A stretch of DNA of 64,000 nt from a virus (taxonomy: Duplodnaviria; Caudoviricetes), in IMG/VR virus record IMGVR_UViG_3300050821_001527, positions 64,001 through 128,000 of that record; one strand, written 5' to 3'. Shown here piece after piece: positions 44,618 through 64,000 of this stretch. A program made the position numbers and the translations under genes. Each line of letters begins with the position of its first letter. The stretch's first letter is position 1. The notes under the pieces are model-generated. The model worked only from the letters and a program-made list of their open reading frames with translations. It did no database searches and was not told the DNA's origin.

Positions 44618-45001
44618 GGGGACGTAATGGTTTCGACATTTATTGTTGAAAGCCGAACGCAAGCACGGGATGATTGTTGGCCCGTTAAAAATTCAATCAA
44701 AACATAAATGCTAACAAAGTAGCACTTAGAAATGCAGTTGACTGCGGAGTAGTTCGCGGTTTTGCAGCATTTGCGATGGCTTAATGCCGTCCCGTCCACC
44801 ACTCCGATTCTCGCTACGAGTGAATGGGCGTAAAAACAGCGGGAAAAAACCCTAGAGCCGGTTCGAGGGTAACGGAACCGGATATTGATGGTGAGTTTTG
44901 CTGCCAGTGTAGCCAATCAAGAATATCAAAGGCTGATAAGCTTGTAGTGTTTTTCTTGCAAACGTAAGTGGACGCGGGTTCAACTCCCGCCGTCTCCACC
45001 A
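44618..45001 (+). ncRNA. ssrA: tmRNA, tag ORF 44710-44784 (A)ANKVALRNAVDCGVVRGFAAFAMA*
   Basis: 5' GGGGACG...GGTTTCGAC and 3' GCGGGTTCAACTCCCGCCGTCTCCACCA; G3.U70, A73; TA-N3-GCT resume context. Confidence 0.95.
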
Positions 45002-49020: not shown

Positions 49021-49518
49021 ATGAAATATTTCAATAAATTCATTCTCGGTTTGGCCTTGGTTGCCTCGCTGTTCCTTGGTGTTGGCTGTGCCACTGGCCC
49101 TCAAATCAACCCAGCCTTGGAACAGGCCGGTATCACCACGGCTGCTGCCGTTGGAACGCAAATCGCCATTACCCCGCCAACGGGTAACGCTGCAAATATC
49201 CCTTATTTCAAGGCCGGGGAAAGCGCCCTGAACGTCCTTTCGGGCGAAACCAACCAGCTTTCCATCGCGGATATTACTGCCGCCTTGGATAAGGCCATCG
49301 GCAACAACCAATATGCGAATCTAATTGCCCCATTGGTTTTGAACATCCTGAACGCTGACTTGCAGAACACTGGCACCAACTCTGTCGTCCAGAACCAGCA
49401 ATTACGCGATGCCTGCGGTTGGATTGCCACGGGTATTGGTGAAGGTTTGGGCAACGCCAATCTGCCACCGGCTTCCGTCGCGCTCAAGTTGAGCCTCGTC
49501 AAGCCGAACAAGAAGTAA
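49021..49518 (+). CDS. Lipoprotein
   Basis: Signal peptide with lipobox LGVG-C. Confidence 0.75.
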   Translation: MKYFNKFILGLALVASLFLGVGCATGPQINPALEQAGITTAAAVGTQIAITPPTGNAANIPYFKAGESALNVLSGETNQLSIADITAALDKAIGNNQYANLIAPLVLNILNADLQNTGTNSVVQNQQLRDACGWIATGIGEGLGNANLPPASVALKLSLVKPNKK

Positions 49519-50426
49519 TGAAAGCGTTGTGCTTGCAGGGTGGCGGTATCCTCGGATACGGCCAGTCTGTGATGTTGAGCGAGCTAGAGTCGGGGCTTAA
49601 CAGCCCTAGCTCTGGCTTGTTTGACATTATAGGGGGCACATCTGTTGGTTCTATCGTCGGAGCGCACCTAGCTCTTGGCATCCCCGCCTCTACCTGCAAG
49701 CAGTTCTTTACTACTCACTCTCCGCTTATCTTCAAGAAAAACTGGCTTTCGCTTATCTCGGTGTTATGGGGAGCTAAATACAATTCCTCAATTATCGAAG
49801 CAAAGCTTCAAGAATGTTTGGGTGATGCAACCCTTGCAGATTGCAAGACCAGATTTATCGCCACGTCCTACGATTGGGCAACCGACAGGCCGGTCTATTT
49901 CAAGTCGTTCGAGAAGTCTTCTGAAACGAAAGATTGGGTGGTCTTGGGCTACGATAGCCCGATAAAGCTTTGGCAGGTTTGCCGAGCGTCGTCAGCCGCC
50001 CAAACCTATTTCCCGGCCTACAAGTATCAAGATATGATTTTGATGGACGGCGGGAACATCGGGGATAACGCCTGTGACATGCTCGTTATCTCAGAGTGCG
50101 CTCAAATCGCGCCATTGACCGAATGGCAGGTTTTGTCGCTTGGGGCGGGTGATACCGTCTGGAAGGAGCGTCCGAGCCTCATGGTCAATCCTAGTGCGGC
50201 TGTAGCGGGTTTGGCAACCATCAAAATTATCTTTTCAGCCGGGGAGTCCTCGGACGTTTACAAAGCTTACCAAATACTTGGGGATAAAAATTACTTGAGG
50301 GTGTCGCCTGACTTGGGGAATGGCTATGCTATTGACGACGCTTCCGTGAAAACCTTGAACGCTCTCGGTGCCGCTGCTGACAAAGCAGGAATCTTGAAAC
50401 TGTTCAAAGACTCGTTCGGGGCTTAA
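49518..50426 (+). CDS. Patatin-like phospholipase
   Basis: QGGG oxyanion loop, GTSVG nucleophile, DGG catalytic Asp. Confidence 0.92.
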   Translation: MKALCLQGGGILGYGQSVMLSELESGLNSPSSGLFDIIGGTSVGSIVGAHLALGIPASTCKQFFTTHSPLIFKKNWLSLISVLWGAKYNSSIIEAKLQECLGDATLADCKTRFIATSYDWATDRPVYFKSFEKSSETKDWVVLGYDSPIKLWQVCRASSAAQTYFPAYKYQDMILMDGGNIGDNACDMLVISECAQIAPLTEWQVLSLGAGDTVWKERPSLMVNPSAAVAGLATIKIIFSAGESSDVYKAYQILGDKNYLRVSPDLGNGYAIDDASVKTLNALGAAADKAGILKLFKDSFGA

Positions 50427-54767: not shown

Positions 54768-55214
54768 ATGAGCAGCGTTGACTCACTCGAAAACCACGAC
54801 CAGTTCCATTTGGAACAACTGCACAAGCTTTCCTGTCAAAGCGGCTCGAAGGACATTCTCGTTATTGACGATAGCACGGGCGACTTGATGGACATTCAGA
54901 AGATTATGAACCTCAAGTATGCAGACCAATTTCACGTAAGGTATTGTCTGGACGCTGAAAAGGGGATTGAGATTCTCAAGGAAAACAATTTCTTTTTGGT
55001 TTTGCTCGATTTCAAGATGCCGAAGTTGAACGGTCTTGAAGTAATCGAGACGGTAAACAAGATGAAGCAGAACGTTCCGTTCGTAGTTTTGACGGGATAC
55101 GGCGACCCATCCATGCGCGAAGCATTGACAAGATTGGGCGTAATGCTCCTGTTGGACAAGCCAATCACGGAGAAGAAGCTGGACATGCTCCTGACTTTGA
55201 CTCACGCGAAATAA
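54768..55214 (+). CDS. Stand-alone CheY-like receiver domain
   Basis: IDD, LLD.KMP..NG, LTG, DKP all intact. Confidence 0.92.
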   Translation: MSSVDSLENHDQFHLEQLHKLSCQSGSKDILVIDDSTGDLMDIQKIMNLKYADQFHVRYCLDAEKGIEILKENNFFLVLLDFKMPKLNGLEVIETVNKMKQNVPFVVLTGYGDPSMREALTRLGVMLLLDKPITEKKLDMLLTLTHAK

Positions 55215-55493: not shown

Positions 55494-55576
55494 GGGCATG
55501 TAACCGAAGCAGTCCTCGAAACTGATTAACCGTAATTATGTTGCAAATGTGGGTGAGATTCCCTCCATGCCTACCA
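55494..55576 (+). tRNA. tRNA-like gene, anticodon unresolved (possible pseudo-tRNA)
   Basis: GGGCATG/CATGCCT-A-CCA and T arm present; anticodon stem poorly paired. Confidence 0.45.
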
Positions 55577-55662: not shown

Positions 55663-55755
55663 GTTCCCGTAGCTGAAAGACAGCCGGTGCCCTTATAAAG
55701 CACTTAATCGCTAGATTGGCGTAAGACTCAGGAGCGTTACCTGACGGGAATACCA
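55663..55755 (+). tRNA. tRNA with UAU anticodon and long variable arm
   Basis: Loop CTTATAA; TAATC-GCTA-GATTG variable hairpin. Confidence 0.7.
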
Positions 55756-55762
55756 AATTTTA

Positions 55763-55846
55763 CGCATCGTGACATAAGCGCGAATAGCACAGCCACACGT
55801 CTCAAAAATGTGAGTTTTAAGGGTGCGAGTCCCTTCGATGCGACCA
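55763..55846 (+). tRNA. trnL-CAA: tRNA-Leu(CAA), short V region, insertion before the D stem
   Basis: Loop CTCAAAA, A73. Confidence 0.75.
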
Positions 55847-55852
55847 ATTTAT

Positions 55853-55928
55853 GTGCCTATGATGGAATAGCATACATACCAGCCTCAGAAGTTGGGTTTT
55901 GCAGGTGCGAGTCCTGCTAGGCATACCA
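55853..55928 (+). tRNA. trnL-CAG: tRNA-Leu(CAG), class I-like short V loop
   Basis: Loop CTCAGAA. Confidence 0.8.
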
Positions 55929-55933
55929 TTTCC

Positions 55934-56017
55934 CGCTCCGTGACCTTGTAGCGAACAGCACAGCTTGCCGTCTTAGACACGGTGGTTTTGCAGGTGCGAG
56001 TCCTGTCGGAGCGACCA
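55934..56017 (+). tRNA. trnL-UAG: tRNA-Leu(UAG), short V region, insertion before the D stem
   Basis: Loop CTTAGAC. Confidence 0.75.
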
Positions 56018-56022
56018 ATTTA

Positions 56023-56110
56023 GCCAGTGTGGTGAAAGAGCAGACACACCATCTTGAGAAGGTGGCGCGAATAAAGTAGCGTGTAGGTGCGAATCCTATC
56101 ACTGGCACCA
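56023..56110 (+). tRNA. trnL-GAG: tRNA-Leu(GAG), long V arm
   Basis: Loop TTGAGAA. Confidence 0.85.
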
Positions 56111-56192
56111 ATTTCCTAATGGAAGGTCTGTTAGGACACAGTAGCAGTCGAGATTCTAACCGCCTCGCCGGGGCGTTGCTACACGGCATTAC

Positions 56193-56267
56193 GGTCTATT
56201 GTTGAATGAGTTATCATAGTTCCCTGTCACGGAGCAATAACGGGTGCGAGTCCCGTATAGACCGCCA
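56193..56267 (+). tRNA. trnD-GUC: tRNA-Asp(GUC)
   Basis: Loop CTGTCAC, G73. Confidence 0.85.
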
Positions 56268-56272
56268 TTTTA

Positions 56273-56340
56273 CGGCTGAGTTAGCGATTCCTGCGCGTGG
56301 GAACGAGACGATTCACTTCGTTTAACTGATGAAGCCGCCA
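56273..56340 (+). ncRNA. 68-nt CCA-ended RNA with a T-loop-like hairpin first
   Basis: CGGCT/AGCCG-CCA; AGTTAG/TTAACT; TTCC-TGCGCGT-GGGA. Confidence 0.4.
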
Positions 56341-56345
56341 ATTTT

Positions 56346-56422
56346 GGGATAGAAGGTAAAGTAGTGGAACCGTTCCGTTGTCTGCGGAAAAAAAGTGGGT
56401 GCGACTCCCATCTATCTCGCCA
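56346..56422 (+). tRNA. trnD-GUC: tRNA-Asp(GUC), second copy, U37
   Basis: Loop TTGTCTG, G73. Confidence 0.75.
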
Positions 56423-56517
56423 TTTTGTCAGAGAAGTCCGTCAACCATGCGGTTGACCCGTATGGAGAACGTCGAGTTCAGACATATTGTATAGCTGGCC
56501 ACTTAGGACTTCCGTTC

Positions 56518-56595
56518 AGTCAGTGAGGGAGTAAGATAACCCCGACGCCTGCAAAGCGTTTCGTATAGTCGGAGCATTACCGACACTGACTTCCA
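56518..56595 (+). tRNA. trnC-GCA: tRNA-Cys(GCA)
   Basis: Loop CTGCAAA, U73, T loop AGCATTA. Confidence 0.85.
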
Positions 56596-56599
56596 TTTC

Positions 56600-56676
56600 G
56601 TCCTAATGGTGTAAGGGAATTACAACACGGTAGTCTTCGGACTACAGATGCAAGCCAACTATTGCAAGGGACTCCA
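56600..56676 (+). ncRNA. tRNA-like RNA with a cUUCGg tetraloop replacing the anticodon loop
   Basis: GTAGTC-TTCG-GACTAC; D and T arms; CCA end. Confidence 0.5.
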
Positions 56677-56680
56677 ATTT

Positions 56681-56757
56681 CGGTTTGTCGCCTAGTGTTC
56701 ATGGCACTCGCCTTGGGAGCGAGCATAACGCGGGTTAAAATCCCGCCAAGCCGACCA
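56681..56757 (+). tRNA. trnP-UGG: tRNA-Pro(UGG)
   Basis: Loop CTTGGGA; T loop TTAAAAT with D-loop GT (U19-A56). Confidence 0.85.
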
Positions 56758-56766
56758 TTTTTTAGA

Positions 56767-56843
56767 CGGGGTATAATGTCAGCAGCTAGACGGCTCCCTT
56801 CGGAGGGGAGAGGCCGTGGGTGCGAATCCCACTACCCCGACCA
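56767..56843 (+). tRNA. trnP-CGG: tRNA-Pro(CGG)
   Basis: Loop TTCGGAG. Confidence 0.85.
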
Positions 56844-56847
56844 TTTA

Positions 56848-56918
56848 TGCAGGAAGAATGAGATTCAAGCGGGCCTCATAAGCCTACCCCCGTGGACGCG
56901 ACTTCCACTCCTGCTTCC
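56848..56918 (+). tRNA. tRNA-Met(CAU)-like, 1:72 mismatch, short D arm
   Basis: Loop CTCATAA; T loop CGCGACT. Confidence 0.55.
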
Positions 56919-56963
56919 ATTTTTTATCGAACAGAAACCGTTCTCCGATATAATAGATATTTA

Positions 56964-57545: not shown

Positions 57546-57970
57546 TGTCCGAAGCTATAATCCCCGTGCGTAATAGCACTAAGCGCAAGTAGGCCGAAAG
57601 GCAGAACCGTGATGGTGGATGAACTGCTCGTCTAAAATATCGGCTACATAATTTAGTCAGGTCGTCGGTCTGTCGTTGCGGTGAGCAATCACCAAGCCTA
57701 TGGGACGGCGGCTCGAAAAGGTATCCGTAAGCTGGCAGGAATCGCTTGTGCAAGATTCCACTACCGAAGGAGAATGCGGCGAAAGCCAAGTTCGTTCGCA
57801 CTTGTAGTAGGTCAGTCATCTCAGCCGAGGCAGGCATTTTCAAAATCGTTAGGGTTAGTCCAACCACGGTAAAACGTGAGAGGGGTCATAAAAGACTGCA
57901 AGCGTCACCCTGCCTAAAACCCCCTGTTGGTGAGTGGATAGTTGAAAACGAGGTCAGCGATGACCTGACT
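57546..57970 (+). ncRNA. Large ornate structured RNA (GOLLD/ROOL-like candidate)
   Basis: 13-bp long-range helix 57655-57667/57958-57970; several GNRA-capped hairpins. Confidence 0.6.
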
Positions 57971-62706: not shown

Positions 62707-62780
62707 GCGGGATTAGCTCAAAAGTAGAGCGAGTCGTTTACACCGACAGGACGAGGGAGCATTACCTTCATTCCGCACCA
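62707..62780 (+). tRNA. trnV-UAC: tRNA-Val(UAC)
   Basis: Loop TTTACAC. Confidence 0.88.
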
Positions 62781-62785
62781 TTTAC

Positions 62786-62862
62786 GCAATCGAAGCTACA
62801 GCAGACCGGCTCCCGGCTCTTAACCGGATTTGGTGAGGTTGCAACTACCTCCGATTGCACCA
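62786..62862 (+). tRNA. trnK-CUU: tRNA-Lys(CUU), second copy
   Basis: Loop CTCTTAA. Confidence 0.8.
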
Positions 62863-62866
62863 TTTC

Positions 62867-62946
62867 GCGGTCTTAGCTTAAACGGATAAAAGCCCTTCGC
62901 TCTTAACGAATGAGATGTCGCCCTCCAAGCAGGACAGACCGCACCA
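62867..62946 (+). tRNA. trnK-CUU: tRNA-Lys(CUU), third copy, irregular T arm
   Basis: Loop CTCTTAA. Confidence 0.7.
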
Positions 62947-62957
62947 ATTTGATTACA

Positions 62958-62998
62958 CCCCTGCCGCCTCTTGACAATGCGTAATCGCAGGGGTTTTT
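62958..62998 (+). terminator. Probable terminator near the end of the array
   Basis: CCCCTGC/GCAGGGG plus T5. Confidence 0.55.
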
Positions 62999-63006
62999 CC
63001 ATTTAT

Positions 63007-63092
63007 GGCCGTGTGTAGCGTAAGGGAAAAGCAGAACCGATAGACTTAAAATCTGTTGCTACTTGAGGGTGCAAGACCGTCCACGGCTACCA
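63007..63092 (+). tRNA. trnL-UAA: tRNA-Leu(UAA), insertion before the D stem pairing with the V region
   Basis: Loop CTTAAAA; GTAGCG/TGCTAC extra helix. Confidence 0.75.
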
Positions 63093-63111
63093 ATTTAGTG
63101 TAATGTTTGTC

Positions 63112-63189
63112 ATGGACAACTCAAAGCCTTGGTGGAAAGAAGAATGGTTTGAAACTTGGCTGAAAATTGCCCGCCGTCAGTTCTCGTAA
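63112..63189 (+). CDS. 25-aa Trp-rich peptide MDNSKPWWKEEWFETWLKIARRQFS
   Basis: GTGTAAT-N7-ATG start context. Confidence 0.4.
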   Translation: MDNSKPWWKEEWFETWLKIARRQFS

Positions 63190-63207
63190 ATGCGTGTAAT
63201 AAGAAGT

Positions 63208-63966
63208 ATGGGAAAGTTACTAAGACTCGGAAGAAAGCAAGCCCGCTTCGACAAGCGCACTTTGAAGCTGGAAGACTACATTTCTGCTGATTTACAGTTC
63301 CCCCGCAAGGTTGTTTGGCAGAACAAGATTCCAAATTGGGGCATGATGCTTAACGACCAGTTGGGAGATTGCACCTGTGCCGCTGCCGGTCACATGATTA
63401 TGAACTGGACGGCCAATGCGGGCGTCCTCGTCACCCCAAACGACAACCAAATTCTTTCCGCTTACGAAGCCGTTGGGGGATACAACCCAAATGCCGCTCC
63501 CGACGCCAATGGAAACAACCCAACCGATAACGGTGCCGTTGAACTTGACGTTTTGAAGTATTGGCAGGGAACCGGAATCGCCGGTCACAAAATCGGGGCT
63601 TACGTCAGCATTGACCCGAAGAACAGACGCCACTTGAAGTTGGCTATCTGGCTGTTTGGGGGAATTTACACAGGTGTCAACCTCACGCAAGCGGACATGG
63701 ACGCCACCAACGCAAACCAGCCTTGGAAATACACCACCGGTTCCTCGATTGGCGGTCACGCCATTCCTGCCTTGGGATTCAACCAGCACGGCTTTCAATT
63801 CATTACATGGGGAGCCGTTCAAACGGCCACTCCTGAATGGGTCGCCAACCAAACCGAAGAAGTTTACGCCTTGATTTCCGCAGATTGGCTTGAAAACAAT
63901 GGCAATGCTCCCTCTGGTTTTGATGCTCAACAACTTGCCGCCGACTTAAAAAGCGTCCAAAACTAA
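63208..63966 (+). CDS. Papain-like (C1-type) cysteine peptidase
   Basis: NDQLGDCTCA (catalytic Cys), GGHAI (His), ITWG; GTGTAAT-N7-ATG. Confidence 0.8.
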   Translation: MGKLLRLGRKQARFDKRTLKLEDYISADLQFPRKVVWQNKIPNWGMMLNDQLGDCTCAAAGHMIMNWTANAGVLVTPNDNQILSAYEAVGGYNPNAAPDANGNNPTDNGAVELDVLKYWQGTGIAGHKIGAYVSIDPKNRRHLKLAIWLFGGIYTGVNLTQADMDATNANQPWKYTTGSSIGGHAIPALGFNQHGFQFITWGAVQTATPEWVANQTEEVYALISADWLENNGNAPSGFDAQQLAADLKSVQN

Positions 63967-64000
63967 TTCAAAATATTTGCTTGGGCCAAGCCATCCGGGT

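Follow-up and report, generated by a model that had tools for sequence, protein, structure and literature searches.

Comparative sequence analysis of leucine tRNA genes from a group of phages shows a secondary structure with five helices and two nested three-way junctions, in which the acceptor stem, an additional helix (the strut) and the T arm meet in the outer junction and the strut, the D arm and the anticodon arm meet in the inner one. Judging from their sequences, we think it likely, with a probability of about 0.8, that these are working leucine tRNAs of the phage lineage, with the short strut helix in place of the class II variable arm. Three genes of this type lie in a dense tRNA array at 52.6-63.1 kb of the window analysed here, a stretch of 64,000 nucleotides (bases 64001-128000) of a virus record of 202,882 bp (~203 kb; 49% G+C, an estimated 91% complete). 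The best protein relatives of this phage are uncultured huge phages, and the sequencing runs that contain it carry the label soil.

Leucine tRNA genes of the array

Standard searches of the window gave 16 tRNAs with ARAGORN and 28 matches at E<=1 with the Rfam tRNA model. The three genes were detected neither by ARAGORN nor by the Rfam model (RF00005; E<=1; gathering threshold 29 bits), and ARAGORN also failed on relatives in two further contigs (L136 and L137). [quoted passage not shown] All three have 7/7 acceptor pairs, 5/5 anticodon-stem pairs and 4-5/5 T-stem pairs, and each ends in A73 and CCA. The segment from nt 8 to nt 26 is 26 nt long in each, versus 12-21 nt in the array's other tRNAs, 16-22 nt in those of the genome and a usual length of 16-21 nt, and the variable region measures 6 nt in Leu(CAA), 6 nt in Leu(UAG) and 8 nt in Leu(UAA). 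These two linked features set the three genes apart from all other tRNAs of the genome. Comparison with the insert-less Leu(CAG) gene, which has the same T loop and the D loop GAAYAGCAYA in common with them, places an insert of 7-8 nt directly after U8-G9 (ACATAAG in Leu(CAA), ACCTTGT in Leu(UAG) and TAGCGTAA in Leu(UAA)).

A first-pass annotation had claimed these genes, their inserts and a complementarity between insert and variable region. Coordinates and inserts agreed with the sequence and the parser, and the pairing proved exact, with three pairs in Leu(CAA) (GAC/GUU, followed by an A.A mismatch at the innermost position), four in Leu(UAG) and six in Leu(UAA). These complementarities share one register, which starts at G9 and stops 2 nt before the T stem; with 6/16 as the chance of a pair at each position, contiguous runs of 3, 4 and 6 pairs in this fixed register would arise with a probability of ~3e-6. 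The annotation had also called Leu(CAG) class I-like and Leu(GAG) normal, and we likewise found no insert and a 5-nt variable region in the former and a class II arm of 17 nt in the latter, with A73 and the AGCA D-loop motif kept in all five Leu tRNAs of the window. The phage thus has exactly one tRNA per Leu anticodon, three of them of the extra-helix type, and it uses all six Leu codons. A search of the phage genome for a LeuRS or class Ia synthetase domain found none, so a host enzyme would be needed for charging.

Table 1. Positions of leucine tRNA genes, their parts and neighbouring features in the window.
Feature	Position	Strand	Description	Basis
tmRNA	44618-45001			ARAGORN
Patatin-like phospholipase gene	49518-50426			
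tRNA-like gene	55494-55576		83-84 nt	
Receiver domain gene	54768-55214		inside tRNA array	PF00072
tRNA(UAU, Ile)	55663-55755		93 nt	
tRNA-Leu(CAA)	55763-55846	+	extra-helix type, 84 nt, encoded CCA	parser; model R1, 97.4 bits
Leu(CAA) acceptor stem	55763-55769 / 55836-55842	+		parser
Leu(CAA) helix, 5' strand	55771-55774	+	GACA, G9 and inserted bases 1-3	pairs with 55813-55816
Leu(CAA) linker	55775-55778	+	UAAG, inserted bases 4-7, the last opposite nt 26	sequence; columns 20:39 covary
Leu(CAA) anticodon	55803-55805	+		parser
Leu(CAA) variable region	55813-55818	+	AGUUUU, helix 3' strand (4 bases), then U47, U48	
Leu(CAA) A73	55843	+		parser
tRNA-Leu(CAG)	55853-55928	+	insert-less sibling, class I-like	ARAGORN/Rfam
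tRNA-Leu(UAG)	55934-56017	+	extra-helix type, 84 nt	parser; model R1
Leu(UAG) helix	55942-55945 / 55984-55987	+	GACC/GGUU, 4 bp	
Leu(UAG) linker	55946-55949	+		
Leu(UAG) anticodon	55974-55976	+		
tRNA-Leu(GAG)	56023-56110	+	ordinary class II, completes Leu set	ARAGORN, parser
raiA-motif-like RNA	57659-57966		between two tRNA genes	RF03072
tRNA-Leu(UAA)	63007-63092	+	extra-helix type, 86 nt	parser; model R1
Leu(UAA) helix	63015-63020 / 63057-63062	+	GUAGCG/UGCUAC, 6 bp	
Leu(UAA) linker	63021-63023	+	UAA	
Leu(UAA) anticodon	63047-63049	+		

Several further features accompany these genes. An encoded CCA followed by AUUU ends nearly all tRNAs of the array and recurs in the arrays of related phages, and this AUUU may be a common 3' processing signal. 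The receiver domain in the array is that of a stand-alone response regulator (E 2.5e-18); a search for related loci by means of this gene found none. Directly upstream of Leu(CAA), the UAU tRNA has A73, a 24-nt variable region and a 5-nt D loop, and the same gene precedes extra-helix Leu tRNAs in a MAG contig (L136 4237-4329). In reading AUA with a long arm and A73, it resembles the V-arm tRNAs of nematodes, which receive leucine. The tRNA-like gene, which is kept in two other phage contigs (L021 4664-4746 and L033 4377-4460), forms its acceptor stem and T arm well; a hairpin resembling an anticodon arm (loops, e.g., CUACGAA and CUUCGAA) follows the acceptor stem after only ~8-16 nt and precedes a long region of ~25 nt. 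The raiA-motif-like RNA scores 54.9 bits, below the gathering threshold of 101.3. In one RNA-library run (X4), a 350-nt contig with a depth of 242 joins 57971 back to 57652, which suggests an abundant circular or tandem RNA of ~320 nt. Contigs from the RNA-library runs X3 and X4 also span the Leu genes (e.g., 55869-56925 and 62717-64000); these data are contigs only, which do not resolve mature ends, strand or level and may stem from DNA carry-over.

Covariation between the insert and the variable region

Pattern and covariance-model searches of viral, metagenome and MAG contigs gave a family of 101 unique sequences at 94 loci. A first DNA pattern returned mostly chance matches in a protein gene, L009 being the only useful locus, while a pattern of T loop plus trailer yielded 33 related viral contigs. 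A pattern that combined the ends of the D loop and the variable region with the T loop had 7 viral matches, all of them family members. When the insert and the paired variable-region bases were left free, 98 matches were found in 76 metagenome contigs (93 insert-bearing Leu tRNAs and 5 matches by chance), and the same pattern gave three real matches among prokaryotes represented by one genome per species. The search patterns fixed parts of the D loop, the UU, the T loop and the ACCA, so that invariance there is partly built in for members found by pattern; the insert and the variable-region bases that pair with it were not fixed.

The covariance model R1 was built from five members and held the plain cloverleaf only, and the alignment made with it (alignment A2; 145 matches, 116 of them distinct and 113 insert-bearing) was thus not fitted to the proposed helix. 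In this alignment, 87.2% of the cells of columns 9-12 are paired with their partners in columns 62-59, versus 63.9 ± 1.5% in shuffles, of which 0/500 reached the observed value. The covariation score of 0.629 drops to 0.263 in shuffles and does not exceed 0.24 once the partner is displaced by 1-3 columns. This level of pairing is comparable to that of the D stem (85.6%) and the anticodon stem (91.4%); all cloverleaf stems covary as well, with 91-99% of cells paired in the acceptor, anticodon and T stems. Each of the three inner pairs is represented by four to six types of standard pair, chiefly GC (50), AU (36) and UA (7) at 10:61, CG (39), GC (28), UG (18) and AU (10) at 11:60, and CG (34), UA (25) and UG (9) at 12:59. 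These are the compensatory changes in homologues that the first-pass annotation had named as a check on its helix. G9 is invariant and stands opposite U (84) or C (29); since G9 never varies, its pair is attested by one-sided U/C changes alone. In a mutual-information scan of all column pairs with average-product correction, 11:60, 10:61 and 12:59 rank 14, 15 and 20, only cloverleaf pairs rank above them, and no partner of the insert besides the variable region stood out.

Counted in the fixed register from G9, the 101 members comprise 37 helix variants. The mean number of contiguous pairs is 3.71, versus 2.09 ± 0.08 when variable regions are swapped between members (maximum 2.47 in 2000 swaps), with short helices of 1-3 contiguous pairs in 30/101 members. 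Close relatives illustrate the exchange of whole pairs. The members at L088:5828 and L148:8442 have seven other differences, and all three inner pairs have changed on both sides and are still complementary; those at L127:1809 and L093:627 have four other differences and an A:U pair in one versus a G:C pair in the other.

Folding programs recovered the helix in part. The RNAalifold consensus of alignment A2 is the cloverleaf only; a 4-bp helix that closes a multiloop is penalised, and some rows are out of register. Among single sequences, the RNAfold minimum-energy structure of Leu(UAA) contains the helix, which encloses the D and anticodon hairpins; Leu(CAA) and Leu(UAG) were folded without it, and these two and the two ordinary Leu tRNAs were not even folded as cloverleaves. 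The original proposal of an extra helix that joins the 8-10 connector to the variable region in a nested junction is supported at the level of secondary structure by covariation in 113 distinct homologues.

Anatomy, probable leucine identity and distribution of the family

From the 5' end, a 7-bp acceptor stem is followed by U8, the 5' strand of the strut, a linker, the base opposite nt 26 and the D arm; nt 26, the anticodon arm, the 3' strand of the strut (immediately after the anticodon stem), U47-U48 and the T arm complete the molecule. This refines the first description, in that the helix begins at G9 itself (G9:U or G9:C) and that pairing within the insert is confined to its first 3-5 bases. 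Their antiparallel partners, and that of G9, are the first 4-6 bases of the variable region, whose terminal UU precedes the T stem. The remainder of the insert consists of a conserved UAA-type linker (UAA in 42 of the 71 members with a 6-nt variable region) and a single base opposite nt 26, with which it covaries (columns 20:39), mostly in non-Watson-Crick combinations like those of 26:44. The D arm is of the Leu type, with 2-3 bp plus G13.A22 and with A14 and A15 in the D loop. Among the 113 aligned sequences, A14 is conserved in 113, A15 in 112, G13 in 111, A22 in 113 and the terminal UU in 113; U8, G9, G13, A14, A15, A22, U47 and U48 are thus invariant or nearly so, in part because the search patterns impose this on the members they found. 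In a second subtype, the 7-nt variable region ends in CUU, G9 pairs with C and the D stem is 4 bp long; a third, which includes Leu(UAA) of the window, has a 6-bp strut. The T stem of this 6-bp-strut subtype carries a conserved G.G mismatch in its middle (GAGGG/CCGUC; window 63065-63081 and relatives in L103).

The generic features of a tRNA cloverleaf are all present, i.e., a 7-bp acceptor stem, anticodon and T arms that each consist of 5 bp and a 7-nt loop, and a discriminator base followed by CCA. The acceptor/T branch is 7 bp/5 bp throughout, and 8/4, 9/3, 8/5 and 9/4 branches were not encountered in the family. A class II tRNA has a variable arm of at least 10 nt that forms its own hairpin, whereas all members have a variable region of 6-8 nt; a class I tRNA has a variable loop of 4-5 nt and a 2-nt connector (nt 8-9), whereas the three window genes have connectors of 9-10 nt, and the 8-to-26 segment spans 23-28 nt across the family. 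With this connector, this variable region and no class II arm, these tRNAs belong to neither class.

The elbow contacts (18:55 and 19:56) covary in three states, with D loop/T loop combinations AG/UGC, AC/UGG and GG/UUC, and the corresponding column pair 29:74 is within the top 30 of the mutual-information scan. The three-state covariation indicates that the L-shape is kept. In most members across the phage group, G18-U55 is replaced by A18.G55. Work on E. coli LeuRS emphasises G18/G19, and recognition by a standard LeuRS is not guaranteed because of this replacement.

The conserved features of the family point to leucine. The anticodons of the 101 members are CAA (38), UAA (38), UAG (14), CAG (8) and GAG (3), so that 101/101 are Leu anticodons, and A73 is present in 101/101; the ACCA in the patterns partly imposes A73, yet members found only by the model or the parser have it too. 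A search for other amino-acid identities with the same layout and a full acceptor stem found none except one unrelated Ile tRNA with a long D stem. A14, the Leu-type D arm and an A15-U48 pair, which we infer from sequence, complete the leucine features. C1:G72 occurs in 40/101 members, and G3:U70, which was looked for across the family, is absent. Insert-less class I-like Leu tRNAs are found among the relatives as well (L026, L028, L018 and L037). Several extra-helix Leu(GAG) and Leu(UAA) genes have C33 instead of U33 (loops UCGAGAG and CCUAAAC), which is kept across distinct sequences (e.g., L022 9158-9240, L074 5741-5824, L067 153-236 and L080 2381-2464).

Members come from many metagenome projects. 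Neither a megablast search of GenBank phages with the array nor a blastn search with Leu(UAG) gave a match, and no cultured phage with the family was found there. In cellular assemblies, extra-helix Leu tRNAs occur in tRNA islands only. In the chromosome of an Opitutaceae MAG (L151, ~4.2937 Mb), two lie in an island of 13 tRNAs, with a LysR gene on one side and a TROVE/Ro60 gene on the other (L151 10810-12420). That they are a native feature of Opitutaceae was rejected, as only 1/121 genomes searched has them, and has them in a tRNA island. Three islands in an 11-Mb MAG contain three to four such tRNAs each, and two of these islands lie beside RtcB genes among glycoside hydrolases. In the islands of MAG G007, RtcB is at L149 5190-5915 and L150 11551-12648, and phage-type T loops are present in the chromosomal islands. 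The phage itself encodes RtcB, and a tRNA array with RNA-repair genes may be a mobile module.

Proposed function and place among known tRNAs

In a standard tRNA, nt 8-9 and nt 44-48 are antiparallel strands in the deep groove of the D stem, with which they form base triples. Both strands keep their end points here, with U8 before the helix, the UU before the T stem and the first variable base after the anticodon stem, yet they pair with each other, and the strut is thus most likely positioned beside the D stem, where it would follow the normal path of nt 9 and nt 44-48 and its Watson-Crick pairs would replace the usual base triples. It would then lie on the face of the class II long arm, where LeuRS, EF-Tu and the ribosome already accommodate bulk. 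Alternatively, the strut could be stacked onto the anticodon stem, with the D stem displaced. Host LeuRS probably charges these tRNAs through A73, A14, A15:U48 and the elbow, and the charged tRNAs would read UUA, UUG and CUA/CUN codons for the phage. The first-pass annotation had noted that bacterial LeuRS relies on A73 and D-loop geometry more than on the anticodon or variable arm, and this agrees with a review, in which the E. coli Leu identity set is A73, A14 and A15-U48 and the variable arm is dispensable (PMC9976931). Leucine appears to be the only identity compatible with the conserved features.

Instead of decoding, these RNAs could act as decoys or regulatory RNAs (e.g., as baits for host anticodon nucleases or as ligands of the RNA-repair proteins Ro60 and RtcB), with the fold as described. 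Chromosomal islands with such tRNAs do adjoin TROVE/Ro60 and RtcB genes, RtcB is encoded by the phage, and some members have C33. However, the anticodon loops are canonical, with 7 nt, Y32, U33 (C33 members aside) and a purine at position 37, and although the parser requires U33 and R37, 88/93 insert-bearing pattern matches pass it (93/98 matches belonging to the family). The family is also restricted to the five Leu anticodons in 101/101 members and conserves A73 and a Leu-type D arm, and the Leu set of the phage is non-redundant, such that UUA, UUG and CUA have no other phage tRNA. We consider a decoy role improbable, and decoding is favoured because there is one Leu tRNA per anticodon and all six Leu codons are used. 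A different departure would be that Leu codons are decoded with another amino acid or that a synthetase other than LeuRS charges these tRNAs, i.e., that they recode. The missing class II arm, C1:G72 in 40/101 members and the non-standard elbow (A18.G55) leave room for this. Under known identity rules, other synthetases that accept A73 read anticodons that are missing in these tRNAs, which argues against recoding. The G3:U70 of AlaRS is absent, as are both the long arm and the G73 of SerRS, all five Leu anticodons and no others are used, and A73, A14 and A15-U48 are known bacterial Leu determinants (PMC9976931). We regard recoding as very unlikely.

The remaining alternatives concern whether the strut exists in the mature tRNA at all. 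The complementarity could matter in the precursor only, as a processing or folding signal, or the insert could be removed, and the mature tRNA would then be plain and class I-like, as is the CAG sibling. This would suit the presence of insert-less siblings in the same array and in relatives; however, two observations fit a structural role in the mature tRNA, namely the covariation of nt 26 with the final base of the insert and a variable region that exceeds that of the insert-less form by one base. No mechanism known from bacteria or phages excises 7 nt at the 9/10 junction, a length far below that of group I introns, and an archaeal-type splicing endonuclease is not expected here. A precursor-only role is thus very unlikely. 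Finally, short helices and rejection by standard tRNA finders are what one might expect of chance complementarity in decaying tRNA pseudogenes, but 101 unique sequences are conserved with compensatory change in every stem, and 7/7 viral and 93/98 metagenome pattern matches are family members. The covariation results rule this reading out.

Taking these molecules as working leucine tRNAs, the arm may have been replaced for stability of the core without it, or for escape from factors that recognise class II tRNAs or the host tRNA-Leu. Because RNA-repair genes are associated with the tRNAs, an arms race over tRNA cleavage is a reasonable putative cause of the remodelling. A broader scenario, tentative and in its entirety rather unlikely, is that this is a new natural fold that is active on the ribosome and charged by host LeuRS, that it spread in phages and mobile tRNA islands through conflict over tRNA integrity, that the loss of the class II arm with retention of a class II-type core lets these tRNAs escape a nuclease of the host or of a phage, or another factor, that recognises class II tRNAs or host tRNA-Leu, and that the link to RtcB and Ro60 is functional.

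Bacterial class II tRNA-Leu (E. coli; RF00005) has in common with the family the Leu anticodons, A73, U8-G9, the 3-bp D stem with G13.A22, A14, A15/U48 and the 7/5 branch. In contrast to it, the family has no variable hairpin of 10-20 nt, pairs a 7-8-nt insert (nt 9/10) with a 6-8-nt variable region, has A18.G55 rather than G18.U55 in most members and does not reach the Rfam threshold. Animal mitochondrial tRNA-Leu, said to be the only tRNA-Leu without a long arm (PMC9976931), likewise lacks the class II arm and is still defined by A73 and A14, but it is organellar, a plain and often weakened class I cloverleaf with a 2-nt 8-9 connector and no insert or extra helix. The insert-less phage tRNA-Leu (55853-55928 and the four relatives) is probably the nearest evolutionary neighbour; it belongs to the same phage group and has the same D loop, T loop and short variable region ending in UU, but it lacks the insert and the strut and its variable region is 5 nt. 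Other natural departures from the cloverleaf are tRNA-Sec, allo-tRNAs (8/5, 8/4 and 9/3 branches; PMC5389517), which were likewise found in metagenomes and phages, tRNA-Pyl and armless mitochondrial tRNAs (PMC7609411). These have altered stem lengths or lost arms and no helix between the 8-10 connector and the variable region, whereas the branch here is 7/5. In the open-access literature (including PMC7609411 and PMC5389517), a helix between these two connectors was nowhere described.

The family contradicts the statement that tRNA-Leu has a long arm everywhere except in animal mitochondria (PMC9976931), and it does so as a large natural family in bacterial phages and a few bacterial chromosomes. 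Because standard finders miss these genes, this phage group is annotated as lacking tRNAs for UUA, UUG and CUA, and analyses of codon compensation are distorted. The family is a natural experiment in how far the core of a tRNA can be remodelled in molecules that presumably still serve LeuRS, EF-Tu and the ribosome, and a possible scaffold for orthogonal or engineered tRNAs. Phage tRNAs are known to escape tRNA-directed defence through changes in the anticodon loop (PMC10264068); if escape from defence is the purpose of the strut, these tRNAs would extend that principle to remodelling of the whole tRNA body.
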